The position numbers were made by a program, and so were the translations under genes. Shown here one piece after another: positions 6,569 to 42,010 of a stretch of DNA of 64,000 nucleotides. Below the pieces are notes generated by a model. It was not told the origin of the DNA, searched no databases, and saw only the letters and a program-made list of their open reading frames with translations. Source of the stretch: an uncultured Chloroflexia bacterium (GTDB taxonomy: Bacteria; Chloroflexota; Limnocylindria; Limnocylindrales; CSP1-4); NCBI GenBank assembly GCA_963844945.1, contig CAWJQZ010000024.1, positions 8,116 to 72,115 of the forward strand, in the 5' to 3' direction. The first letter of the stretch is position 1; the number at the start of each line of letters is the position of its first letter.

Positions 6569-8023
6569 TCAGACCCCGGTCTCGGCCTCGACCCTGCCGG
6601 ACGCGATCGCGGCCCTGAGCGCGGCGAGGTCCTTCTCCGTCTGGTCGGCGTACCGGTCTGCGAAGGCGGCGACCGACTCCTCGAATGCGGTGCCGGACCC
6701 CAGGTACCCCGCGATCATCAGCGGGTCGCCGGACCGTCCGTGCGCGTGGGCGAGCGTCGTCCCGCACAGGCGCAGGTACGTGACCAGCTCGTACGGGTTC
6801 ATGAGGGTGACGTCGAAGCTCCCCTTCCAGTCGCGGAGCTGGCGCCAGTAGTAGTCGTGGCCCTGCTCGTCCCAACCCCAGCCGAGGAAGGAGTCCGAGG
6901 CGGCCTGGATCATCCGCTGACCGGCCACCACCCGCTCGCCGTGCGTCCGATACCGGCTCTTCGGCAGGAAGTGCTCCAGGACGGACTCCTGCGCTTCCTT
7001 GATCTGGAGGAAGAGCGGGTCGTCCTGGCCGGCCGAGAAGTAGACGACGAAGCAGCGCGTCCCCACCGAGCCGACGCCGACGACCTTGAGCGCGACGTCG
7101 CGCAGGTCGTAGCGTGCCAGGAGCGTCCGGTGGTCGCCGAGAAGCGTCCGGCGGTAGCGCGCGAACCGCCGCTTGATGCGGTCCATGTCCACGAGGTCGG
7201 GGCGGCGGACGATGAGGGGCGGCGACTCCGCGATCATCGGGGCGCCGGTCTTCGGGTCGGGGGCGAGCTTGAGCGCGTGCGCGGTGTCACGGGCGAACGC
7301 CTCGGCGACGACGGACCGGAGCATCCGTTCGGCACGCGCGCTGGCCGCGGCGGCCCTCGCGATCTCCTCTTCGTCGATGTGCGAATACCAGACGTCGAGC
7401 GTCCGCATCTGCGCGAGGGCGAGCATCGCGTTCCGGTATGCCTCGGCGGCATGGCGCGCGGCATCGAGCCCCGCGCCCTTCGGGTGGCCGAGCGACCGCG
7501 ACGCGACGACCGCGCTCGCCGCGAGGCGCTTGACGTCCCATTCGAACGGGCCCGGGAGCGTCTCGTCGAAGTCGTTCACGTCGAAGAGGAGGTTGCGCTC
7601 AGGCGACGCGTAGAAGCCGAAGTTCGCGACGTGCGCGTCGCCAGCGAGCTGGGCGTCGAGCCCGGCGACCGGGGTCGGCGCGAGGTCCGCGGCCATGACG
7701 TAGGCCGCGCCACGGAGGAACGCGAAGGCGGACGCCGCCATGCGTCCGTATCGGATGGGGACGAGGTCCTGGATCCGCGTCGCCGCCTGCTCCTGGAGGA
7801 GCGCGATCGGGTCGGGGCGGTCCGCCGCGGGCTTCCACTCCGCGTGCGCCTCGCGGGGGGTCCGCTCCCGCAGCGCCCGACCCTTCTCGTACCGTGCCGC
7901 CCGCTCCGGGTCGGAGCGCACGCCGAACAGCGTGGGCGGAGGTGGGCGGAATGAGCCGCCGCGCGCCGGGACGATGGCCCGCGTCTTCGCCTTCTTCCTC
8001 ATGACGAGGCGACGATACGCCAC
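6569..8023 (-). CDS. DUF2252 family protein (kinase-like fold)
   Basis: RIQDLVPIRYGRM, FLRGAA, GDAHVANFG, FDVNDFDE, KVVGVGSVGTRC, RQLRDWKG, AHGRSGD. True start may be MRKK at 8002. Confidence 0.9.
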   Translation of the reverse strand: MAYRRLVMRKKAKTRAIVPARGGSFRPPPPTLFGVRSDPERAARYEKGRALRERTPREAHAEWKPAADRPDPIALLQEQAATRIQDLVPIRYGRMAASAFAFLRGAAYVMAADLAPTPVAGLDAQLAGDAHVANFGFYASPERNLLFDVNDFDETLPGPFEWDVKRLAASAVVASRSLGHPKGAGLDAARHAAEAYRNAMLALAQMRTLDVWYSHIDEEEIARAAAASARAERMLRSVVAEAFARDTAHALKLAPDPKTGAPMIAESPPLIVRRPDLVDMDRIKRRFARYRRTLLGDHRTLLARYDLRDVALKVVGVGSVGTRCFVVYFSAGQDDPLFLQIKEAQESVLEHFLPKSRYRTHGERVVAGQRMIQAASDSFLGWGWDEQGHDYYWRQLRDWKGSFDVTLMNPYELVTYLRLCGTTLAHAHGRSGDPLMIAGYLGSGTAFEESVAAFADRYADQTEKDLAALRAAIASGRVEAETGV

Positions 8024-29491: not shown

Positions 29492-29695
29492 GACCCTGCG
29501 AACGTTGATCCGCCGGCGTGCGGTCGGACACCGCGCGATGGTGCCGGGCGGCACCGCCATAGGTACCGGGGCACCCGGCCGGCGCTGCGAAGGTTCCGCA
29601 ACGGAGAGGGCCGCGAGACGCACCCTCCCGCTATACTCCGCCGTGCCCGAGGCCCGGGCGACGAGTAGATCCGACCGCGGGGCTTCGCCGGCCGC

Positions 29696-29774
29696 GGTGG
29701 CCATAGCTCAATCGGCAGAGCACTGGATTGTGGCTCCAGAGAGGTCGCGGGTTCGAACCCCGCTGGCCACCCCA
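29696..29774 (+). tRNA. tRNA-His(GTG) with G-1 and encoded CCA
   Basis: Acceptor GTGGCCA/TGGCCAC, C discriminator plus CCA, D arm GCTC/GAGC, anticodon arm CTGGA-TTGTGGC-TCCAG, T arm GCGGG-TTCGAAC-CCCGC; TATACT at 29632. Variable loop AGAGGTC is 2 nt longer than usual. Confidence 0.95.
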
Positions 29775-29850
29775 CCGCCGTCGCGATCGCTCCGGTGAAG
29801 TCGGGCCTGTCGAACCCGATGACGATGTACTCCAGCGGACCGAGCGTCAT
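29775..29850 (-). pseudogene. 5' fragment (about 25 codons) of a DUF6325-like gene, cut off at the tRNA 3' end
   Basis: AGGAGG RBS plus MTLGPLEYIVIGFDRPDFTGAIA, then reads into the antisense of the tRNA. Confidence 0.7.
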
Positions 29851-29994
29851 GGATCGCCTCCTGTTCGTGTCGCGAGGCCCCGGCCGGAGGGGTCCTGCCG
29901 AAGGCCCGGGCTCAGGCGCCCATCGCGAGGGTCGCGACCCGACTGAGGTGGGACTCGAACTCCCTTGCCTCATGGAGCAGTGAAACGCCTTCGT

Positions 29995-30035
29995 CCGGCT
30001 CCCGCATCACTCGCCGGGAGTGATGCGGGAGCCGG
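29995..30035. promoter_or_regulatory. Perfect inverted repeat with 18-bp arms, containing palindrome copy 1 (30003-30027)
   Basis: CCGGCTCCCGCATCACTC-GCCGG-GAGTGATGCGGGAGCCGG between two divergent genes. Confidence 0.65.
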
Positions 30036-30200
30036 GTTTCGCGCGTGCAATGGCGCGGATGACCAGCAGCGAGCGCACGGTCGGAACCGCGAGGTGAGCC
30101 GGATGACCGGCCTTGAGGGGCGAAGGCCGCCCGATGGCATGATGGGACGACCGGCCGGAGGGTCCGTGGCCGACGGATCCCGTCGCGGGCCGAGCGCCGC

Positions 30201-32413
30201 ATGAGCCTCGGCGATCGCACCGTGCCGGCAGGGGAGGATCCCGGGCTGGTGCCCGTCTGGCTCCAGAACCTCGCCGCCTTCGGCTGGCGGATCTTCGCGA
30301 TCGTGGGGCTGGCGCTCGTCCTCGTGTGGGTCGCGCTCCTCCTCATCTCCATCACCGCGTCGCTCGTGCTCTCGGCGGTCCTCGCATCCACGGCGGCGCC
30401 CCTCGTCATCCGTCTGCGGGAGCGGGGCTGGCCGCACAGCCGGACGGCGCTCGCCGCGTGGGCGGCGATCAGCGTCGTCATCCTCGCCGGGCTCGCATTC
30501 GTGGTCGTCACGATCGTCCCTGCGGCCGTCGACCTCCTCCGGGGCCTCCAGGCCGGCGTCGACACGCTGAAGTCGAACCTGGGCGGGACGACACTCTCCC
30601 CGGAGGCCGCCGCGACCCTCGACCGGGTCGCGTCCGTCGTCACGACGTTCGTGAAAAACCGGGCCAGCGAGCTTGCCGGCTAGGTCTCGCTGACCGCGAC
30701 AATCGCGATCCTCTCCACCTTCCTGACGTTCTTCATCCTCCTCGACGCGGACCGCGGCGCCACATGGGCGCTGCAGGCGTCCACCCCGAGGACCGCGACG
30801 CCCTCCGCCTCCGCTGTCGCGATGCCGCGCTGCGCGTCGGCGGCCTCTTCCGGGCGCTGGCCGCCACCTCGGCCGTCCGGGCCGCCGCGATGTTCGTGGT
30901 CATGCTGGTGGTCGGGACGCCGTACGCCGGGCCGCTCGCGGCGATCCTCCTCGTGGGCGGGATGATCCCGTACCTGGGCATCTTCGTCGCCTACCTCCTC
31001 GTCGGGCTCGTCGCCTTCGGCGGCCAGGGCCTGGCACCCGCGCTGCTCGTCCTCGCCTTTGCGGCCGGGATCGAGGTCGCGATCACGTTCGGCCGCCGCC
31101 GGGCGGGCGGTCCGGCGCCCTTCCGCGTCCACCCGGCCGTCGCCCTGCTCGCCCTCGGGATCGGTGCGCTGGCGGCGGGCATCATCGGGATAATCGTCAC
31201 GGTGCCCGTCGCCGCGTTCCTCCAGCAGGTAACCGGACCGGCCCTTGCGGCGTTCCAGCCCCGCCTGCCGGCGATCACGTCGTCCGGCCCCATCGTGCCC
31301 GGCTGGCTGGACCGGCTCGCGAACTGGAGCTGGCGCCTCCTGGTGGGGATCGGCCTCCTCGCGCTCGCTGTCGCGCTGACCATCGCGCTGTCGGGGCCGG
31401 TCCTCGCGGTCGTGCTCGCGGCGGTCCTCGCCGCAACGCTCGCGCCCGCGGCCTCCGCCCTCCGCCGACGGGGCGTCGGGCCCACCGCGGCCGCGCTCAC
31501 GGCTGCACTCGGCCTCTTCGCGATCATCGCGGTCATCCTCGGCCTCACCGTGGTCTCGCTGGTGGCGAACATGAGCGAGATCGCCGCGCAGGCGAGCGCG
31601 GGCGCCGGGAACCTCGACACGTCCGCGAACGGCGCAATCTCCTGGGTGCCCGACCTCGTCTCGAAGATCTCCGGCGGTGCCCTCGACGCCGTCGTCGCGT
31701 TCGCCGCGATGCCGCCCGGCCTGCTGCTGATCGGGACGCTCACCGTCATCCTGACCTTCTTCTTCCTGCGCGACGGCGGGGCGGCGTGGCGCTGGGCGAC
31801 GCGGATGCTCGCCGGCTGGCGGCGCACCGAGGTGGACGCGGCGGGCACGCGGGCCGCGGGCGTCCTCGGCGGCTACATGATCGCGACCGGGGTGATCTCC
31901 ACGTTCGGCGCGGCGACGCAGTTCGCGATCATGACGGTCCTCGGCCTTCCGCTCGCGCTGCCGCTTGCCGTCCTGTCGTTCTTCGGTGGCTTCATCCCGT
32001 ACATCGGCTCGTTCATCACGACCGGCATCGCGCTGCTCGTGACCATCGCCGTGGGGTCGCCGACCGACATCGCGGTGATGCTCGTCTTCACCCTCGTCTT
32101 CAACATCGTCACCGGCAACGTGGTGGCGCCGCTCGTCTACGGCCGCGCGGTGAGCATCCACCCCGCGGTCGTGCTCCTCGCCATCCCCGCGGGCTCCACG
32201 ATCGCCGGCGTCTTCGGGATGTTCATCGTCGTCCCGCTCATCGGCGTGGTCGTCGCCACGTGGCGGACCGTGCTGTTCATCCTCGGCGACGGTCCGAAGG
32301 ATGGGAGCGGCGCCGCCACCGGGGACGCCGGTGGCGAGCCGTCGGCCGAGGGGCCCGGCACGCCCGCGGAAGACGCCGGCGGAGGGGTGACGGAGCCCGC
32401 ACCGGTGAGCTGA
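30201..32413 (+). CDS. AI-2E family transporter with two tandem AI-2E domains; in-frame TAG at 30681 and frameshift near 30785
   Basis: VPVWLQNLAAFGWR and VPGWLDRLANWSWR open each half; GGMIPYLG / GGFIPYIG; RVHPAVAL / SIHPAVVL; collinear with the paralog at 62109-64000. Confidence 0.85.
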
Positions 32414-32462
32414 CGGCCCCCGGTGCCGCGCGCGAGCGTGCACGCCGGGCGGGATCCGCTCG

Positions 32463-32487
32463 CGCATCGCTCTCTGCGAGTGACGCG
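32463..32487. promoter_or_regulatory. Palindrome copy 2, upstream of the UPF0104 gene
   Basis: CGCATCGCTCTCTGCGAGTGACGCG; its 23-nt core is 18/23 identical to copy 1. Confidence 0.6.
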
Positions 32488-32606
32488 CCCGCCCGTCCCT
32501 GCTGGTTCAATCGGTCCAGCGGGCAGCCGTTGTACGGCACCTGCGTGCGAGAAGCCCGAGACTCGTCCGGACCTGCGGATCGATCGGGCGGGGCGAGGAG
32601 ACGGCG

Positions 32607-33772
32607 ATGATCGAGTCCGGAGCCGATCCCGTGGACGGCACGCCCGCGCCCCAGGCGACACCCGGTCCCGATGCGACCCCGGGCACGGACCCGGCGTCTG
32701 CCGCTGCGCCCCCGAGCCGGCGCGCGGCGCTCATGCGGTCGGGCCTGATCGTCGCGGTCCTCGTCGTCGTCTTCGGCATCATCCTGCCGGCGACGGGCGT
32801 GGACTACGCCGAGGTCTTCGCCGCCTTCCAGGCGCTCTCGCCCGATCAGGTCGTCGTCATCACGATCCTCGGCGCCCTGGCCTGGCTCGTGAGCGGGCTT
32901 GTCTTCTCTGCCCTCATCCCCGGGCTGTCGGTCCTCCGCGGCCCGGAGTCGTGGCTGATCCTCTCGGGGATCGGTTCGAGCGTCCCCTTCGGCCCGTGGA
33001 ACATGGGCGTCCTCTTGGGTCGTGGTCCGCGGCTGGGGCATCCCGAACATCCCCGCCACCTCGGGGATCGCGCTCTACGGCGTGGTCAACGAGTGAGCGG
33101 CCTGTTCCTGCCGCTCTTCGCGATCATCCTCCTCGCCGTGACCGGCGCCCTGGCCGGCGCGAGCCAGGCGAATGCGGCGTGGGCCATCGCGATCATCAGC
33201 GCCATCGTCTTCGTCATCGCGATCGCGCTCATCGTCGCGGTCGTCCGGTCGGAGAAGGTCGCCGACTGGCTCGGGCAGACCGGGCAGCGGCTCGTCACCG
33301 CGACGCTGGCCAAGCTTGGCAGCAAGGGTGCCCCTGACGTCGACGGCGCGATCCACCGCTTCCGCGACCAGCTCGGCGTGGTCATCCGCCAGCGGGGCTT
33401 CGCCGCCATGGGCACGTCGATCGCCTCGCAGTTCGCGTGGGTGATCGTCCTGATCGTCTCGCTCCGGATGCGCGGCGTGCCGGCCGACGTGCTCAGCCCC
33501 GCCATCGTCTTCGGGGTCTACGCCCTCGTCATGGTCATCACGATCATCCCGCTCTCACCGGGCGGCGCGGGCGTCCCGGAGCTCCTGTTCATCACGGCGT
33601 TCACGAACATCGCGGGGGAGCAGTACAACGCGGCCATCACGGCAGGGGTCTTCCTCTACCGCCTTTACTTCTGGTTCCTGCCGATCCCGCTCGCCTGGAC
33701 CTGCTTAAGCTGACCCGGCGCGGGAAGTCGATGCTGCCGACGACGGCGGAGCTGAAGGCCGCCGCGCACTGA
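32607..33772 (+). CDS. UPF0104/YbhN (lysylphosphatidylglycerol synthase TM, flippase-like) membrane protein; frameshifts
   Basis: Multiple TM segments; IPLSPGGAGVPE, AGVFLYRLYFWFLPIP. Confidence 0.82.
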
Positions 33773-33803
33773 CCCGCTGACCCGCTCCCGACCGCGAGCG
33801 CGC

Positions 33804-35547
33804 TCAGGACACTGCGGTCGGCGCTCCTGGATCGGCCCGGTCGCCGCGCGTCTCGCGCGCGAACGCCTCCCTGGTGCCTCGTTCACCGTCCGGTAGAAGT
33901 GGGCGCGGTCGATCGTCTCGTGCAGCTCGTAGCGCACGACCCAGTCGTGGACCGAGCTCTGCAGCTCGGCGAACGCGAGGTGAATCCCGCTCGCGTTGAG
34001 CTCGAGGTCGAGATCCGCGAGCATCGCCCCGGCGGTCGTGTCGATGTCGGTGATCGGCTCGGCGGCGATGAGGACCCACTTCGGCGGCGGTGTCGCCGAC
34101 CTGACGGCCTCGCGGACCAGGTCCCGGAACTGGGTCGCGTTCGCGAAGAAGAGCGGGGCCGACCAGCGGATGATGACGAGCCCCGGCACCTGCTCCGCCT
34201 CGGGGTACCGGGTATGTCGTGGTAGCCCGCCACGTCCGGGGCCTTCCCGAGGATCGCCGAGTACGGGCTCCAGACACGCTTGAAGATGTAGAAGACGGAC
34301 AGGACCACCGCGATGACGATGCCCTGGAGGACGCCGACGAACGCGACCCCGAGGAGGCACAGGATCGCGAGGACGAACTCGGCCTTCCGGACCCGCCAGA
34401 GCCGGCGCAGCTCGGCGAGGTCGAAGAGGCTGATCGACGCGGCGATGACGACGGCCGCGAGGACCGGCTGGGCATCGACTGGACGAGCCCGGGGACGAAG
34501 ACGAGCATCGCGAGAACGAGCGCGGCCGCGACGATACCCGCGAGCTGCGTCTTCGCGCCGGACTGGACCGCGACCGCGGTGCGCGATCCGCTCGAGCTCA
34601 CGGGGAAGCCGGAGAAGAACCCGACGGCGACGTTCGCCGAGCCGATGCCGGCGAGCTCCTGGTTCGTGATCACCTCGTACCCGCCCTTGCTCGCGAAGGC
34701 GCCGGACGTGGAGATCGTGTCGCCGATCGCGACGAGCGAGATGCCGACGGCCGAGCCATGAGCAGCGGGATGTCCGAGAGGTCGACTGCGGGGATCGACG
34801 GCAGCGGGAAGCCCTGGGGCAGGACGCCGATGACCGAGACGCCGTGCGACGCGAGGTCGAGGACGGTCGACAGGACGATCGAGACGACGACGGCGACGAG
34901 GATCCCCGGCGCCCGCGGCGCGAACGCCTTCAGGCCGAGGATGATCGCGAGGCTCAGGAGCCCGATCCCGAGCGCCCAGACGTTCGTCTGGTCGAGGCCC
35001 TGGACGAACGCCTGCACCTCGCCGACGAGGCTGCCCGCGTCGGTCGAGAACCCGAAGAGCTTCGGCAGCTGGCCGATGAAGATCGTGATCGCGAGCCCCG
35101 CGAGATAGCCGGTCCGGACGGGGCTCGAGAGCAGGTCGGCGACGAAGCCGAGACGGGCGATGCCGGTGGCGAGGGTGATGATCCCGACGAGGATCGCGAG
35201 CACCCCGGCGAGCGCGATCGCCGCGTCGGAGCCGCCCGCGGCGAGCGGCAGGATCGTCGCTGCGATCATCGGCCCCAGGGAGGAGTCGGGGCCGAGGACG
35301 AGGCTCGGGGACGACCCGACGAGCGCGAACGCGATGAGGCAGATGACGGTCGTGTAGAGGCCGGTGATCGCAGGGAGACCGGCGAGCTCGGCGTACGCCA
35401 TCCCCTGGGGGACGAGCAGCGTCGCGAGCACGATGCCCGCGACCAGGTCGCGCGACAGCCAGGCCCGCTCGTACGAGCGATCGCCCGGAGGCCGGGCATC
35501 CAGTCGTCCACCCAGCCGCGCCGGGAGCCAGAGACCTCCTGAGCCAT
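33804..35547 (-). CDS. SulP/SLC26 anion permease with STAS domain; several frameshifts
   Basis: RDLVAG, VPQGMAYAELAG, GLYT, LGPDSS, GQLPKLFG, NQELAGIG, SSSGSRT, APLFFANA, DIDTTA. Confidence 0.92.
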
Positions 35548-35661
35548 TCTTAAGCGCTCCCGGATGCGCGTCCCCACGGCGTCGACGCCCTCGCCGGGAC
35601 GGCCCTCGCGGTGCACGTCTCCAGCGGGTCGCGAACAACGTTGCGACTCCCTCGAGACCCC

Positions 35662-35686
35662 CGCATCGCGCGCCGCGCGCGATGCG
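35662..35686. promoter_or_regulatory. Palindrome copy 3, between the divergent SulP and CMD-MalT genes
   Basis: CGCATCGCGCGCCGCGCGCGATGCG; core 18/23 identical to copy 1 with symmetry-preserving changes. Confidence 0.6.
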
Positions 35687-35760
35687 CCGGATGGAGCGGC
35701 GGGCACACAGTTGGCGCGGCGGTCGCTCCGTCCAGCTTGTGTATCGAGGCGTGGGATCAG

Positions 35761-36204
35761 ATGACCGTGGTGGCGGCCGAGGAGATGTTCCGCAGGCTCA
35801 CGATCGGCGAGACCGGCCTCGTCGCGGCCCTCGCCGGCAGGGAGGACCGCAGTCGGGACCTGCGACGACTCGATGCGAAGACCTCATCGCTGCTGCAGGT
35901 GGGAGCGCTCGTCGCGCTCGATGCGCCCGAGACGGCATACCGGACCGCGGTCGACGATGCGCTGCGGCTCGGCGCGGACATCGAGGACCTGCTCGCAGTC
36001 CTCCTCGCGGTCGCCGAGCAGGTCGGTTCCGCGCGCGTCATCGCCGCGGCGCCCAGGGTCGCCCTCGCCGCCGGCTACGACGTGGAGACCGATCTCGACA
36101 GGAACGAGCCCTCCGACCACGGTTACGGCCGGCGTATCGGGGGCGCTGCCGGTTCGGATCCCGGGGCGCCGAAGGCCGATCCGGGAGCGCGACCGACCGC
36201 CTGA
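35761..36204 (+). CDS. Carboxymuconolactone decarboxylase/AhpD-fold protein with no cysteine
   Basis: LDAKTSSLLQVGALVALDA..ALRLGADIEDLLAVLLAVAEQVGSARVIAAAPRVALAAGYDVE. Confidence 0.8.
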   Translation: MTVVAAEEMFRRLTIGETGLVAALAGREDRSRDLRRLDAKTSSLLQVGALVALDAPETAYRTAVDDALRLGADIEDLLAVLLAVAEQVGSARVIAAAPRVALAAGYDVETDLDRNEPSDHGYGRRIGGAAGSDPGAPKADPGARPTA

Positions 36205-36299
36205 CGGGGTCCTCGCTCGGTCATGTAGGCCTCGTCCTACTGCATGCCGGGCGCTCCCGATGCTACGGTCTCCCCGGTCCCCAGCGATCGGAGGCAGAG

Positions 36300-38617
36300 A
36301 TCAGCGTCGTACGCACCGGGAGGACCCGGCTCTCTCGAGAGGAGGGCGAGGATCCCGAGACCCGCGCGCACTTCCGCCCGTCGTTCCCGCTCGTCGAGGC
36401 GAAGCTGCATCCTCCCGCGCCCCAGCCGGGGTGGGTCCCGCGCGGGCGCCTGGTCCGGCTGCTGTCGGCCGAGCCCCGTCCGACCGTCGAGTCGATCGTC
36501 GCGCCGCCCGGGTACGGCAAGACGGTGCTCCTCGCCGACTGGGCCTCACGCGCGCGCGAGCCGGTCGCCTGGCTGACGCTCGACGCCTTCGACAACGACC
36601 CGAGCGTCTTCCTCGCGTACCTCGGAGCGGCGATCGACCGCATCGAGCCCCTCGACAGCGCGGCCGGTGCCGCGCTCTCCGCCCCCGCGACGCGCGTGCT
36701 CGCAAGCGCCGTGCCACACCTTGCGCGCGCTCTCCACGCCATCGGCCGGCCGGCGACGGTCATCCTCGACGACGCCCATCGTCTCGTCGACCGCACGTGC
36801 CTCGACGCGGTGACGCTGCTCCTCGACTACCTGCCGCCGGGGCTCCGCTTCGTCCTCGCGGCGAGGACGGAGCCCGACCTGCCGTTCGGGCGGATCCGGG
36901 CGCGCGGCGGCCTGCGCGAGATCACCGGGGGCGACCTCGCGCTCGACGCGCAGGAGACGGAGGCGATCGCGCGCGCGGCCGGGTGGCCGCTCGAGCCGAG
37001 AGAGGCAGAGGCGCTCGCCGAGCGGACCGAGGGCTGGGCCGCGGGCGTCTACCTCGCGGCCGTCGCCGGGCGCCGAGGTGGCCCGGGGAGCGCATCGACC
37101 GATGTCTCGGGCCCGAGCAGCTTCATCGCCGCATACCTCCGGACGGAGTTCGAGGCCGACCTGCAGGCCGAGGACCTGGTGCTCCTGACGCGGACGTCGA
37201 TCCTCGAGGTCGTCGAGCCACCCCTTGCGGACGCGGTCGTCGAGTGCGGCGACGCCGCCGCGCGGCTCGCCCGGCTGGCCCATGCGAACCAGCTGATCAC
37301 CGTCGTCTCCGGCTCGCCCACCGCCTACCGCTACCACAGCCTGCTGCGCGAGTTCCTCAGGGTGGAGCTCGAGCGCCGGGAGCCGGGGTCGGCCCCGGCG
37401 CTGCACCGCCGGGCCGCGACCTGGTCGGCGGCTGCCGGCCACGCGGAGCTCGCGATCGAGCACGCGCTCGCCGGGGACGACCCCGACCTGGCGGCCGGAC
37501 TCGTATCCACCTCGATGTTGACGACCCTCTACGGCGGCCACGGCGACACCCTCGACCGATGGCTGGGCAGGTTCGACGGCGCGACATTCGAGCGCCACCC
37601 GCCGCTTGCGGTCGTCGGTGCATGGGTCCACCTCCTCCACGGAAGGACGGACGCGACCGATCGCCTCGCGGACATCGTGGAGCGCTCGACCTTCGCGGGC
37701 GATCCAGGCGACGGAACCGCCTCGTTCGCCTCCGGACGCGCCATGCTCCGAGCGATGCTGGGGAGGCGCGGGCCCGAGGACGTGCTCGCGAACGCTGCCT
37801 TCGCGGTGGACGCCGAGCGACCGGGCAGCGGGTGGCGCACGAACGCGCTCGCCCTGCTCGGGTCGGCGCACTCGATGCTGGGCGACGACGCAGCAGCCGA
37901 CGCGGCGTACGCCGAGGCCATCGGGGCGGGGGGCATGGCCGGGTCCATGGTCGCGCTGGCGCGGCGGGCCGGCATCGCGCTCGCGCGGGGGGACTCGACC
38001 GCGGCCGACTCGTTCTCCCGCGAGGCCGACGCCGTCCTCACGACGGCGGCCTACGGCAACCTGGTCTCGGCACTGCTGGTGAACGCCGTCTCCGCGCGCG
38101 TGGCGATCCACCTGGGGGACCAGGCGCGAGCTCGGGAGAAGCTCGTCCTCGCCCAGCTCGCCCGGCCTTCGGCGTCGACCGCCGCCCCGTGGTTCTCCGT
38201 GGGTGCGCTGCTCGAGCTGGCCCGCGCATACCTTGCGGTCTCCGACCTCGCGGGCGCCCAGGTGGCGGTCCGGGAGGCGGACGTGATCGCGCGCAGGCGC
38301 CCGGCCCTCGGGATCCTCGCGACGGAGTCGAGGAGATGCGGGCGCGCCTCCAGGATGCCTCGGGCGTGCTCATCGGGTCGTCGGCGCTCACGCCGGCGGA
38401 GCTGCGGCTTCTGCCCATCCTCTCCACGCACCTGCAGTTCGAGGAGATCGGCCTGCGCCTCCACCTCTCGCCACACACGGTCAAGACGCACGCGCGGTCG
38501 ATCTACGGGAAGCTCGGCGCGTCGAACCGGAGCGAGGCGATCGAGCGGGCGGTGGAGATCGGGCTGCTCGAGCCGTACCCGGGCCTGGCGCTGAACGCGC
38601 GGCCACCGCGTCGCTGA
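36300..38617 (+). CDS. MalT-like STAND ATPase / TPR / LuxR-HTH transcriptional regulator; frameshift near 38330; start codon uncertain
   Basis: EAKLHPP, APPGYGKT, VAWLTLD..DNDP, ILDDAH, RTEGWAAG, YRYHSLLREFL; HTH LTPAELRLL..LSPHTVKTHARSIYGKLGASNRSEAI. Confidence 0.92.
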
Positions 38618-38656
38618 TCACGGACCCGCGGCGGTCCGTCGGGATCCGGCGTGCCT

Positions 38657-39112
38657 TCAGCCGCCCCGGCGGTAGTCCGTGTCGATCTCGTCGATCTTCG
38701 CCACCTTCGGCGCCGAGCGACCACCCTGGAACTCCGAGCGCATGAACGCATCGACGAGCAGCTTCGCGGTCTCGACCCCCACGGTCAGGGCGCCGAGCGT
38801 GACGATCTGCGCGTCGTTGCTCTTCGCCGCGCGCTCCGCGGAATACGGGTCGGCGATCTGCGCCGCGCGGATCCCCGGGACCTTGTTCGCGGCCATCGCC
38901 ATCCCGATCCCCGTCCCGCAGACGAGGACGCCGCGCTCGTGCCGGCCGGCAGCGATGTCCTCCGCGACGGCCCGGGCGACGTCCGGGTAGTCGACCGGGT
39001 CATCGGTCGCGACACCCGCGTCGTCGACCTGCCAGCCGCCCTCGCGCAGGTGGTCGCGCAGCGCGTCCTTCATCGGCCGCCCCAGGTGATCGCTCCCGAC
39101 GATGATTCGCAT
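38657..39112 (-). CDS. RpiB/LacA/LacB sugar-phosphate isomerase, DerI/EryI-like subgroup
   Basis: GSDHLG, DYPD, CGTGIG, ANKVPGIRAA; SAERAAKSNDAQ and GGRSAPKV in place of the canonical RpiB HNNAN and RHxRR. Confidence 0.88.
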   Translation of the reverse strand: MRIIVGSDHLGRPMKDALRDHLREGGWQVDDAGVATDDPVDYPDVARAVAEDIAAGRHERGVLVCGTGIGMAMAANKVPGIRAAQIADPYSAERAAKSNDAQIVTLGALTVGVETAKLLVDAFMRSEFQGGRSAPKVAKIDEIDTDYRRGG

Positions 39113-40275
39113 CAGTCGCCTCCGGCCTCGGTCTCCTCCGCGAGCGTCCGCATGACGAGCGCGTCGGCCACGTCGCCGGCGCCGCCGACGTGCAGCATCG
39201 CGCGGCTGTTCCCCGCCAGCGCCCGGGCGACGTCGAGCTTCGCCGCGCCGACGTCCCAGGCCGCCGCCTCCGGGAAGGCCCGGAGCCGCTCCTGGAGCTT
39301 CGCGAGGCGGAAGGCCTCGGTCTCCGCCTCCACCTCGACCACGCGGCGGCGGGTCTCCGCCTCGATGACCCGACGCTCCATCTCCTCGCGGTCCCTCGCG
39401 AGCCTGGCGGCGACCTCCTGCTTCGCGAGCGACTCGCGGTCGGCCTGCCTGTGCTGCTCGAGCGCGAACCGCTCCGCCTGCTCCAGCTGCTGGAGGCCGG
39501 CGAGCCGGCGGGCCTCACGCGAGGCCATGAACTCGGCCGGAGGCGCGATGTGCGTGATGAGTGCACGTTCCACGGTCGCCCCATACCCCCCGAGGGCAGC
39601 ACCGATGCCGGCGGCGAGGCTCGCGGACTCCTTCTCGGCGAGGTCGAGGACGCCGTCGATGGGGATCCCCCGGACGAGGTGGCGGACCGCCTCCTGGCAG
39701 GTCCCCTGGAAGACGGTGTCGAAGTCCGACGGGGCGATCGCGTAGACGAATTGTTCCGGCTGCGCGATCCGGAAGGTCAGGAGGATGTCCGCGTTGACCC
39801 GGACGTCGTCGCTCGTGATCACCCCGGGGATCTGGGCGTCGAACGGGATCTCGCGCGTCGTCACGAGGTGGCTGATCCCGATCCCCGGCCGGAGGATGCG
39901 GACGCCCGGCCCGAGCGTCCTGAAGAACCGCCCACGCTTCACGAGCATCGCCTGCGAGCCTTCGGGGATCGAGACGAAGAAGCTCGGGACGATCCCGGCG
40001 ATGAGCGCGACGATGCCTGCGAGGCCGATCACGCCCGCGGCGACGATCTGGATCGGGAGGACGAGGGCGAGGACGACCGCGACGAGCCCGCCGATCGTCA
40101 GCGGGAGGTTCACGCGCATGAGCCGGCGGGGCTGGACGACGATCGGGAGGCGGCCGCTCGCGTCGGGCTGCGCGAAGGCGTCGCCCGCGCGGTCGAGCGA
40201 GACGCGGGCCTGGGTCAGCTGCGGTGCGGTCGAAGGCGAGAGTTCGGCGAGGTCGGCAGGGGCCTGCTCAACCAT
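39112..40275 (-). CDS. SPFH/Band 7 domain membrane protein
   Basis: Two TM helices, IPEG..LGPG..REIPFD..TSDDVRV..TFRIAQP..EAVR, coiled-coil tail. Confidence 0.85.
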   Translation of the reverse strand: MVEQAPADLAELSPSTAPQLTQARVSLDRAGDAFAQPDASGRLPIVVQPRRLMRVNLPLTIGGLVAVVLALVLPIQIVAAGVIGLAGIVALIAGIVPSFFVSIPEGSQAMLVKRGRFFRTLGPGVRILRPGIGISHLVTTREIPFDAQIPGVITSDDVRVNADILLTFRIAQPEQFVYAIAPSDFDTVFQGTCQEAVRHLVRGIPIDGVLDLAEKESASLAAGIGAALGGYGATVERALITHIAPPAEFMASREARRLAGLQQLEQAERFALEQHRQADRESLAKQEVAARLARDREEMERRVIEAETRRRVVEVEAETEAFRLAKLQERLRAFPEAAAWDVGAAKLDVARALAGNSRAMLHVGGAGDVADALVMRTLAEETEAGGD

Positions 40276-41680
40276 GGGCGGTCATCTCCTCGGGGCGCAC
40301 GGGCGGGATGGCGGTGGCGAGTGGGGCGACCGGGGCCGGAGCGGACGCGGGGCCCGGCGTCGCTGAGGAAGCCGGCGCGGCCGCCACGACCGGACCGACC
40401 CCGGCGACGGGCGACCGGCGCTCGGCGGCGGCGCGGCGGTAGACGAGCGGGACCCGCGGGCCGGAGCGGGCCCGTGCCGTCCCGACAGGCGGGGGCAACG
40501 GCTGCCATGGGAGGAGGCCGGGCGGGCGAGGCGGCTCGGCGAAGCGCCCGTAGACGTACTGGACGGCGTGCACGGCGACCGCGATGAGCGGACCGGCGAC
40601 CAGGAGCGGGATGATCCCGATCTGGCTCGCGACGACCACACCCGGGATGAGGATCGCCGGGTGCACGTCGAGCGCCGGGCCCGAGAGCCGCCCGCCGACG
40701 AGCATCCCCGCGACCTTGAGGACGACGACGTACGAGACGACGAACGCGAGCGCGATCTCCGGGGGCTGCGTGGCGAGGAGGACGAGCGCGGGGAGCGCGC
40801 CGAGGATCGGCCCCACCTGCGGGATGAGCTGCGCGGCGCCGGCGATCGCGGAGACGGCGATGTACGGCGCCTCGGGGATGAGCCCGAACCGTCCGGCCGC
40901 GTAGAGCGCGAGCCACACACCCAGGCCGGTCCCGACCGACGCGAGGAGCTGGACGCGGAGGTACGCGCTCGCGACCGCGTCCACGATGCGCGCGAGCGCG
41001 AGGAGGTCGGGCCGCAGCCATGGCGCGATGTGCCGTGAGAGACGCCGCCGCGCCGGGGGCGTGTCGCGCGTCACCGACAGGATCCAGGTCGGGATGACGA
41101 GGAGCCCGAGGACGACGCTCAACGCATCGAAGGTGTGGATGATCGAGTCGGCGATGAGCTTCGCCAGGCCGTCCACGACGCCGTTGATGTCGGCCTTGAG
41201 GATGGTCACGACCCGCTCGATGACCTCGGTGGCGATCGTCCGCGACCCGTCCGGCAGCGTGGCGAGCCAGTCGCGCACCCGAACGCCGACGTCCGCGAGC
41301 CGGTCCCCGGTCGGGAGCTCGAGGAAGATCTTCACGAGCTGCGCGAGGATGGGCGGGCCCACCACCACGAGGAACGCGATGACGGCGGCGACGACCGCGA
41401 CGACCGCGAGGAGGCCCGCCACCGCGCGCGGCATGTATCGGTCGAGGCGGTCCACGACCGGCAGGACGGCGTAGGCCAGCACACCGCCCGCCAGGAACGG
41501 GACGATCGCCGGCCACGTGACGCCGAGCAGCGCCGCGAGGGCCAGGACGGTGAACGTCACGACGACGATCCGGCCGACGCCGGCGGGGGTCACCGTACGG
41601 ATGCGCGCCCCGAGGGCGCGCCAGGCGGCCCCCGCCCGCTGCTGCGCGTCCGTCGTCGCCACCTGCTGGGCCACCGACAC
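40268..41680 (-). CDS. AI-2E family transporter (single domain)
   Basis: PFLAGGVLAYAVLPVVDRL, AYLRVQL, LIPQVGPILGALP, LDVHPAIL; GTG start at 41680. Confidence 0.85.
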   Translation of the reverse strand: MSVAQQVATTDAQQRAGAAWRALGARIRTVTPAGVGRIVVVTFTVLALAALLGVTWPAIVPFLAGGVLAYAVLPVVDRLDRYMPRAVAGLLAVVAVVAAVIAFLVVVGPPILAQLVKIFLELPTGDRLADVGVRVRDWLATLPDGSRTIATEVIERVVTILKADINGVVDGLAKLIADSIIHTFDALSVVLGLLVIPTWILSVTRDTPPARRRLSRHIAPWLRPDLLALARIVDAVASAYLRVQLLASVGTGLGVWLALYAAGRFGLIPEAPYIAVSAIAGAAQLIPQVGPILGALPALVLLATQPPEIALAFVVSYVVVLKVAGMLVGGRLSGPALDVHPAILIPGVVVASQIGIIPLLVAGPLIAVAVHAVQYVYGRFAEPPRPPGLLPWQPLPPPVGTARARSGPRVPLVYRRAAAERRSPVAGVGPVVAAAPASSATPGPASAPAPVAPLATAIPPVRPEEMTAHG

Positions 41681-42010
41681 CTCGACCTGCGGCACCGCGG
41701 CGCGGCACCCTGGCCATCCTATCGCGGCGGCACGACCGTGATGGGACCGGAGGACGCCCCCGCGGACGCAGAGGGTGCCCAGGAGGGAGCAGCCGTTGAC
41801 GCCGGGTGCCGACACTGGGTCACTCGGGCAGCGCCAGGGGGAGATGGACGGAGGGGTCGCCCGCACCGACGTCTCCCCCTCTCGTGCCCGTGTGCTCTAC
41901 GATGCCTGCGACGCGACCACGTCACGTATGGGACCCGTCCGAGTCGCTCTGTCGCCGGATGCATGGGTCCGCGATGGCGTGGAGCGTGCACGCGACAGGG
42001 AGTCACGCGC

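Follow-up and report, generated by a model that had tools for sequence, protein, structure and literature searches.

In a stretch of 64,000 nucleotides from an uncultured Chloroflexia bacterium (hereafter, the window means this whole stretch), an inverted repeat of 25 bp is found three times in a small group of genes next to a tRNA-His gene. What recognizes this palindrome? The original prediction took it for a new operator, namely the binding site of the adjacent MalT-like regulator of the LuxR family, with autoregulation included. We consider that the palindrome is probably the operator of this regulator, and that the regulator probably also controls its own operon, which begins with the gene for a CMD-fold protein, because the motif is restricted to regulator loci, has a fixed position, is conserved across genomes and shares the published architecture of a MalT operator. 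The three copies, identified from the exact sequence and with a weight matrix, are as follows.

30003..30027, no strand: palindrome copy 1, 25.2 bits, in the divergent DUF6325/AI-2E intergenic region.
32463..32487, no strand: palindrome copy 2, 20.5 bits, between the AI-2E stop and the UPF0104 start.
35662..35686, no strand: palindrome copy 3, 27.0 bits, in the divergent SulP/CMD-regulator intergenic region.

The three 25-mers are present exactly as they had been written, and a recount agrees that 17 of the 25 positions are invariant among them. Their intergenic placement, about 75-175 bp from gene starts, is likewise borne out by the measured distances. From copy 1, it is 150 bp to the start of DUF6325 (29852, minus strand) and 173 bp to that of AI-2E (30201); copy 2 is 49 bp past the AI-2E stop and 119 bp ahead of the UPF0104 start (32607); copy 3 is 74 bp ahead of the CMD start (35761) and 115 bp ahead of the SulP start (35546, minus strand). 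When the window was searched with the degenerate consensus at up to one mismatch, six strand-matches (three sites) were obtained; 100 dinucleotide shuffles averaged 0.03, and none reached six. At up to three mismatches, the count was six against 3.59 in the shuffles, which is not significant. The same degenerate consensus had four matches in the complete 4.15-Mb assembly: the three window copies and one on contig C32, which carries a second, diverged version of this gene group. Copy 1 sits inside a longer palindrome of 41 bp (29995-30035, with 19-bp arms), which occurs in this window only. Relative to C32, the arms of copy 1 outside the 25-mer carry a burst of substitutions amid an intergenic region that is 94% identical.

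The weight matrix was symmetric and was trained only on nine sites upstream of CMD genes, taken from six assemblies; copies 1 and 2 of the window were outside the training set. In the 64-kb window, three matches reach at least 11 bits, and these are the three copies, in agreement with the original prediction, which had noted no full copy in the other intergenic regions read. The assembly that was scanned consists of 59 contigs (4.15 Mb, 73.5% G+C). Seven matches of at least 20 bits were found in it, and all of them lie within paralogous, regulator-bearing loci on contigs C24 (the contig of the window), C32 and C38. At this threshold, five first-order Markov null genomes gave 3, 0, 1, 0 and 0 matches. 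Below 18 bits, the genome counts are at the null level; for example, 20 matches of at least 14 bits were observed, and the null genomes had 20-29. C32 retains all three palindromes, and C38 has one palindrome 68 bp ahead of its CMD gene and one ahead of its SulP gene. The motif is not present in many dispersed copies, as a genome-wide repeat of the repetitive extragenic palindrome (REP) type would be, and high-scoring copies were found within the regulator loci only; this possibility had been raised with the original prediction. A match of 18.2 bits on contig C19 (C19:55347-55371; L151 2848-2872) was not counted as a site because it is within the null expectation. It is partly palindromic and lies between divergent genes of the beta-lactamase family and for PGA_cap.

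Conservation was then considered across genomes. Homologues of the regulator with 50-60% identity were found in five of the six other genomes of the same genus and in one further genus. They also occur in metagenome-assembled genomes (MAGs) labelled uncultured Chloroflexia, Chloroflexi and Anaerolineae, and a Candidatus Limnocylindria record has 40% identity. Seventeen loci have the CMD gene ahead of the regulator gene. In these, the 160 bp ahead of the CMD gene contain a best matrix match whose end is 67-95 bp from the start codon, and the flanks are otherwise diverged and align poorly. Fifteen of the 17 sites score 18-30 bits. Eight of the loci were outside the training set, and six of these score 18.4-30.1 bits. 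In loci L072 and L147, the site is degenerate (5.6 and 6.4 bits) but stands at the same place with the inner core kept. In the rest of these loci, a score of 20 bits is attained at only 7 of 212,595 positions, each of them another site that had already been listed. Four loci have a second site, which follows the regulator stop and precedes a SulP gene downstream.

The consensus over 23 sites is CGCATC-R-Y-N-C, 5 nt, G-N-R-Y-GATGCG. Positions 3, 5, 6, 20, 21 and 23 are invariant in all 23 sites, positions 4 and 22 agree in 21, and position 10 is C in 22. Thus, the outer bases are conserved as sequence and not just as pairing. A simpler pattern, CGCATCG-N11-CGATGCG, is too loose for an analysis of co-occurrence: with one mismatch, it matches in 37 of 41 relatives, and the reversed control matches in many as well. 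At zero mismatches, the matches listed come from genomes G000, G004 and G010 only.

Is this type of operator new? The available part of a study on Actinoplanes sp. SE50/110 describes a MalT activator whose palindrome, TCATCC-5 nt-GGATGA, precedes 17 transcript starts (PMC7567727). The 3' end of that motif lies 34.4 +/- 1.0 nt from the transcript start and overlaps the -35 region, and regulation by MalT was shown by deletion and overexpression (PMC7567727). The authors link the motif to the Escherichia coli MalT box, GGA(T/G)GA (PMC7567727). As far as that text describes the Actinoplanes operator, the resemblance to our motif is close. Inverted hexamers with a 5-nt spacer are seen in all three window copies and in all 23 sites. 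In both systems, the motif stands upstream of operons around a MalT-like regulator gene, including that of the regulator itself, and is kept in relatives. Moreover, the published core occurs exactly in some of the homologous loci examined. Several features differ from that description. The window motif is best conserved at the outer CGCATC/GATGCG arms and is relaxed in the inner hexamer; the host is a member of Chloroflexota; a small local set of transporters and small proteins of unknown function takes the place of a 51-gene maltose-responsive region; and the Actinoplanes assignment was made with transcript starts and mutants. Therefore, the operator candidate of the original prediction is a real motif, but its architecture and spacing already exist in the Actinoplanes MalT palindrome as described in that part of the study (PMC7567727), and the operator type is already known. 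What is new is the variant sequence, the host lineage and the predicted small transporter regulon.

We also compared the motif with two further operator types, again as described in the available parts of the sources. For the E. coli MalT box (PMC7567727, PMC9628970, PMC4381067), the regulators agree in architecture (STAND-NTPase, TPR-like sensor and GerE), the GATG-containing half-site here resembles the GGA(T/G)GA core, and there are several sites per promoter region. The boxes of E. coli, however, are asymmetric and are arrayed at maltose genes in direct or inverted orientation, whereas the site here is a strict 25-bp palindrome. The lux-box operators of LuxR/GerE-family dimers (a 20-bp inverted repeat; PMC9628970) are alike in being an inverted repeat for a GerE-type helix-turn-helix, for which autoregulation is common. 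They differ in that the site here is 25 bp with conserved blocks wider apart, and in that the regulator is a large ATP-dependent multimerizing protein and not a small autoinducer-binding dimer.

The Actinoplanes-type core was then counted around homologous regulators. The exact core taken from a related site by coordinate was used as the query. With at most two mismatches in 12 positions, the loci of 79 homologous regulators (765,602 bp) gave 149 matches and three first-order Markov nulls gave 26-35, an enrichment of about five-fold around homologous regulator genes. In the 68 loci with full flanks, 26 matches fall in the 750 bp before the regulator gene and 30 in the 500 bp after it, against five in 2 kb of coding sequence. 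The TGCG arm and a downstream AAT element are retained in loci from Actinomycetota, where the CMD gene comes after the regulator, behind a core-type site. Over loci L079-L150, a CMD gene stands beside this regulator subfamily in many cases; it is upstream in Chloroflexota and directly downstream in many MAGs from Actinomycetota, Thermoleophilia and Acidimicrobiia. A further new point is that this regulator subfamily travels with a cysteine-free CMD-fold protein across two phyla. Among the 12 results listed of 288 in a literature search for CMD-LuxR/MalT pairing, judged by titles and the beginnings of abstracts, nothing relevant appeared.

The CMD-regulator pair in the window is composed of two genes.

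35761..36204, plus strand: CMD-fold (AhpD-like family) protein of 147 amino acids, cysteine-free, first gene of the CMD-regulator pair (Pfam PF02627, 25 bits).
36306..38617, plus strand: MalT-like large ATP-binding LuxR-family (LAL/STAND) regulator, start approximate (Pfam AAA_16, AAA_22, TPR_MalT and GerE; NCBIfam MalT model).

The regulator has the architecture of LAL or MalT-like STAND proteins, with a P-loop NTPase, a TPR-like sensor and a C-terminal GerE helix-turn-helix. In the window copy, a frame change near 38331 shifts the helix-turn-helix to another frame. Pfam finds AAA_16, AAA_22 and GerE in the regulator proteins from C32 and G004. The TPR_MalT match is below the cut-off in L077 (30 bits) and weak in the window open reading frame (ORF), and the Walker A sequence GYGKT is invariant in all eight aligned regulator proteins. 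Against the NCBIfam MalT model, the regulator scores 243 bits (E 4.4e-72). Because the equivalog cut-off is 537 bits, the protein is, by this measure, a homologue of MalT and not MalT itself. Orthologues of the CMD gene were detected by tblastn in nine of ten loci tested. Because no cysteine is invariant in the alignment of these CMD-fold proteins, they are probably not AhpD-type enzymes. The original prediction wrote 'CMD-MalT'. A fusion of the two was rejected, since Pfam, NCBIfam and tblastn all separate two genes. A 978-amino acid 'fusion' ORF on C32 was also rejected: its first ~230 residues are an Arg/Pro/Gly-rich out-of-frame translation across the CMD gene. Long 'fusion' ORFs of this kind are out-of-frame read-through in high-G+C DNA.

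Could the palindrome belong to another protein? The link between protein and site is inferred and not direct, so that the operator might be that of a transcription factor encoded elsewhere, with the MalT-like regulator merely one of its targets, or that of the CMD-fold protein, whose gene accompanies regulator and site in most loci. Moreover, the CATC and GATG blocks have their centres ~19 bp from each other, a large spacing for a simple dimer of LuxR type. We consider these options unlikely. In G000, every match of at least 20 bits is inside a regulator locus, and the motif architecture equals that genetically assigned to the Actinoplanes MalT homologue in the available text (PMC7567727). The CMD-fold proteins have no DNA-binding domain in Pfam, and none besides that of the regulator was found with Pfam and NCBIfam among the scanned ORFs of the gene block. 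Thus, the assignment to the adjacent regulator, including autoregulation, gains support from comparative genomics together with the published precedent in the same family.

When the flanks of 25 sites were aligned, a further conserved element was observed outside the palindrome. In the window, it occurs three times.

29977..29984, minus strand: flanking element TTCACTGC, 18 bp outward of copy 1 towards DUF6325.
30046..30053, plus strand: flanking element TGCAATGG, 18 bp outward of copy 1 towards AI-2E.
32506..32513, plus strand: flanking element TTCAATCG, 18 bp outward of copy 2 towards UPF0104, with none on the other side.

The consensus over the 25 sites is YTNAATGG or TTSACTTG, and the element is also present in the Actinomycetota loci. 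In divergent regions, the palindrome is flanked by it at both ends; copy 2 has it at one end. Therefore, its arrangement fits the architecture of DNA promoters. Under the Actinoplanes geometry, the element is located at the place of the -10 region but is without the canonical A at -11. It is possibly a third MalT-box-like element about 30 bp downstream. In some loci, the element resembles another GGATGA half-site.

Several observations weigh against the operator assignment. Most of the compiled sites are in or next to the operon of the regulator itself, so that their co-occurrence with the regulator is partly built in. In each half of the window copies, the inner hexamer shares 3-4 of its six positions with TCATCC/GGATGA: TC and the last C in one half, G and the last GA in the other. 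Related sites (L077, L130, L149 and others) share 5-6 of six, and the divergence in the window looks as if the inner positions had drifted within this lineage. The flanking element does not conform to the canonical -10 or -35 sequence, and a scan for sigma-70 consensus promoters found none at the sites. The remaining points come from pairing. The copy 1 RNA folds into a 19-bp stem (-45.1 kcal/mol, z -7.4). At the inner symmetric positions of the 23 sites, 70 of 115 pairs are complementary, against 57.2 +/- 3.8 in column shuffles, and G:T exceeds A:C on the sense strand by 13 to 5.

These pairing data would suit hairpins, of RNA or of cruciform DNA, that act as attenuators in 5' untranslated regions, as processing or stability elements, or as terminators that lack a T-tract. 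Copy 2 is placed 49 nt after the AI-2E stop, and its RNA fold has z -2.8; furthermore, the two bases flanking copy 1 change between the window and C32 in a pair-preserving manner. However, many of the 23 sites are paralogous. With z -0.6, copy 3 folds no better than its shuffles; z is -1.5, -0.3 and -0.5 for the orthologous sites L064, L068 and L066, and in the minimum-energy folds of L064 and L068 the two halves are not paired with each other. The long stem of copy 1 is lost in the C32 copy, and 27 of the 115 inner pairs are plain mismatches. The conservation of the outer bases goes beyond pairing alone. The symmetry-preserving differences between the window copies, which the original prediction had pointed out and which resemble hairpin covariation, are weak once 23 sites are compared. 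No copy has a T-tract or gives a terminator-like call, and the tails are G+C-rich; thus, a hairpin followed by a T-tract, as in an intrinsic terminator, was not found. Copies 1 and 3 lie between divergent genes, and the mirrored flanking elements fit DNA promoters and not one transcript. A search of 29500-36300 with Rfam 15 at E up to 1 gave only the tRNA and a sub-threshold Plastid-ycf2 match on it (25.5 bits; the cut-off is 65.7). A conserved RNA hairpin is not supported, and we regard a hairpin function in general as very unlikely.

If the palindrome is the operator of the MalT-like regulator, the following genes of the block are its predicted targets, in addition to the CMD-regulator operon.

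29780..29852, minus strand: 5' remnant of a DUF6325 gene, ~24 codons (no Pfam match for the window ORF; C32 homologue; junction).
30201..32413, plus strand: AI-2E family transporter region with interrupted frame, pieces 30201-30683 and 30326-32413 (Pfam PF01594, E 1.8e-47 and 1.1e-4).
32607..33713, plus strand: UPF0104/LPG_synthase_TM-like membrane protein (Pfam PF03706; weak NCBIfam MprF match for the C32 copy).
33804..35546, minus strand: SulP-STAS anion transporter, frame broken near 34670 (Pfam Sulfate_transp in both pieces; start read from the sequence).

Thus, the positions of the palindromes upstream of DUF6325, AI-2E, UPF0104, SulP and the CMD-regulator pair are as had been predicted, with the correction that DUF6325 is a stub in the window and that the pair is two genes. 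On C32, a full-length DUF6325 gene is followed by a gene for a SHOCT-domain protein (Pfam matches to DUF6325 and SHOCT), and the SulP copy is intact (581 amino acids with STAS; TIGR00815, 424 bits). In the AI-2E region, 1-bp gaps relative to C32 are present at 30776, 31047 and 31535. The region seemingly has two AI-2E-like segments, an N-terminal piece at 30300-30551 and a full domain at ~31346-32263 in the long ORF; with interrupted frames, these may be a tandem pair or one long fused protein. More AI-2E paralogues are nearby (40268-41866, minus strand; C24:70350-71954), and none has a copy of the motif; the one on C24 past the window was included in the scan, as the original prediction had suggested, and has no site. 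A Band_7/SPFH gene is also nearby, and a motif copy is absent there too (region 39112-41866 and C24 past the window).

MalT is described as an inducer- and ATP-dependent multimer that binds cooperatively to its boxes, in the available part of the source (PMC4381067). By analogy, the regulator here would multimerize in an ATP- and inducer-dependent manner and bind both half-sites through its C-terminal GerE domains. It would then act on transcription from a fixed position adjoining the core promoter. Activation, as with the MalT proteins of E. coli and Actinoplanes, seems somewhat more probable to us than repression. Copy 3 would control the CMD-regulator operon itself and the divergent SulP gene, copy 2 would control UPF0104, and copy 1 would control AI-2E and, where they are intact, the DUF6325-SHOCT genes.

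The gene block itself is variable, as shown by a comparison of the window with its own assembly (blastn and megablast) and by the junction sequences.

29697..29774, plus strand: tRNA-His(GTG) (ARAGORN; Rfam tRNA, 63.8 bits).
29780..38656, no strand: 8.9-kb block with the DUF6325 stub, AI-2E, UPF0104, SulP, CMD and the MalT-like regulator.

The MAG is 76% complete. The homology break is at 29779/29780, and the block thus starts 5 bp past the 3' end of tRNA-His; this left junction truncates the DUF6325 gene. Contig C26 lacks the block and carries 44 unrelated bp (7356-7400) in its place, and the flanks of the block match C26 at 90-98%. The second copy, on C32, is inverted and diverged (91% and 82% identity) and ends 46 bp from tRNA-Arg(CCT), and C38 has a third paralogous CMD-regulator-SulP locus. 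Between 17845 and 44514, the window and C26 are two near-identical versions of one chromosomal region (98-99.7% identity), which suggests that strains are mixed in one bin. The block may be a strain-variable insertion of 8.9 kb directly after tRNA-His, with a chimeric assembly join as a possible alternative. Because the block is strain-variable and both copies are near tRNA genes, one could regard the palindromes as repeats of mobile DNA without a regulatory role, either REP-like or as integration or recombination sites of a tRNA-linked block. This explanation is extremely improbable: the seven strong copies in 4.15 Mb are internal to the loci and not at their ends, and the distance to the gene starts is fixed in 17 loci despite diverged flanks. 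Furthermore, no integrase or transposase domain was found among the scanned block ORFs of the window and C32, and neither an integrase nor direct repeats were seen.

It should be mentioned that several ORFs in the window (ABC_tran, FtsX, AI-2E, SulP and the regulator) are split because single-base gaps are frequent in C24 relative to C26 and C32. In the block, 14 single bases are missing from the window and two from C32 when these are compared. Outside the block, over 9 kb, 10 bases are missing from C24 and four from C26. We therefore rejected pseudogenization of the window block as unproven, since 1-bp gaps of the same kind also occur outside it. For the interrupted frames in the block, consensus errors are at least as likely as decay.

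A wider proposal, which we put forward as doubtful, is that regulator, CMD-fold protein and operator form a conserved but undescribed signalling module of three parts in Chloroflexota and Actinomycetota. In the available part of the source, MalT is said to be inhibited by a protein, MalY (PMC4381067). By analogy, the cysteine-free CMD-fold protein, in this reading always adjacent, non-enzymatic in such a module, could serve the MalT-like STAND regulator as a co-sensor or anti-activator; its gene precedes the regulator gene in one of the two phyla and follows it in the second. The shared 25-bp operator would consist of the core, the CGCA/TGCG arms and the third element 18 bp away. The outputs would be the SulP-STAS, AI-2E and UPF0104 transporters or membrane proteins and the DUF6325-SHOCT proteins. 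Prediction of a regulator-CMD complex scored 0.00 in two runs, for which controls were not folded, and speaks neither for nor against contact between the two proteins.

For this class of regulator, our finding leaves the present understanding unchanged, and it may be regarded as a sound but ordinary regulon prediction. To our knowledge, almost no transcription-factor sites are known in such a lineage of uncultured, high-G+C soil Chloroflexota, and the predicted regulon is a testable one for it. The palindromic operator of MalT type, hitherto represented by one Actinoplanes study, would be extended to a regulator subfamily that is widespread in two phyla. Moreover, genes of unclear role, namely those for the cysteine-free CMD-fold protein, DUF6325, SHOCT, UPF0104 and AI-2E proteins, would be tied to one switch, and this may narrow the search for their functions and for the inducer.

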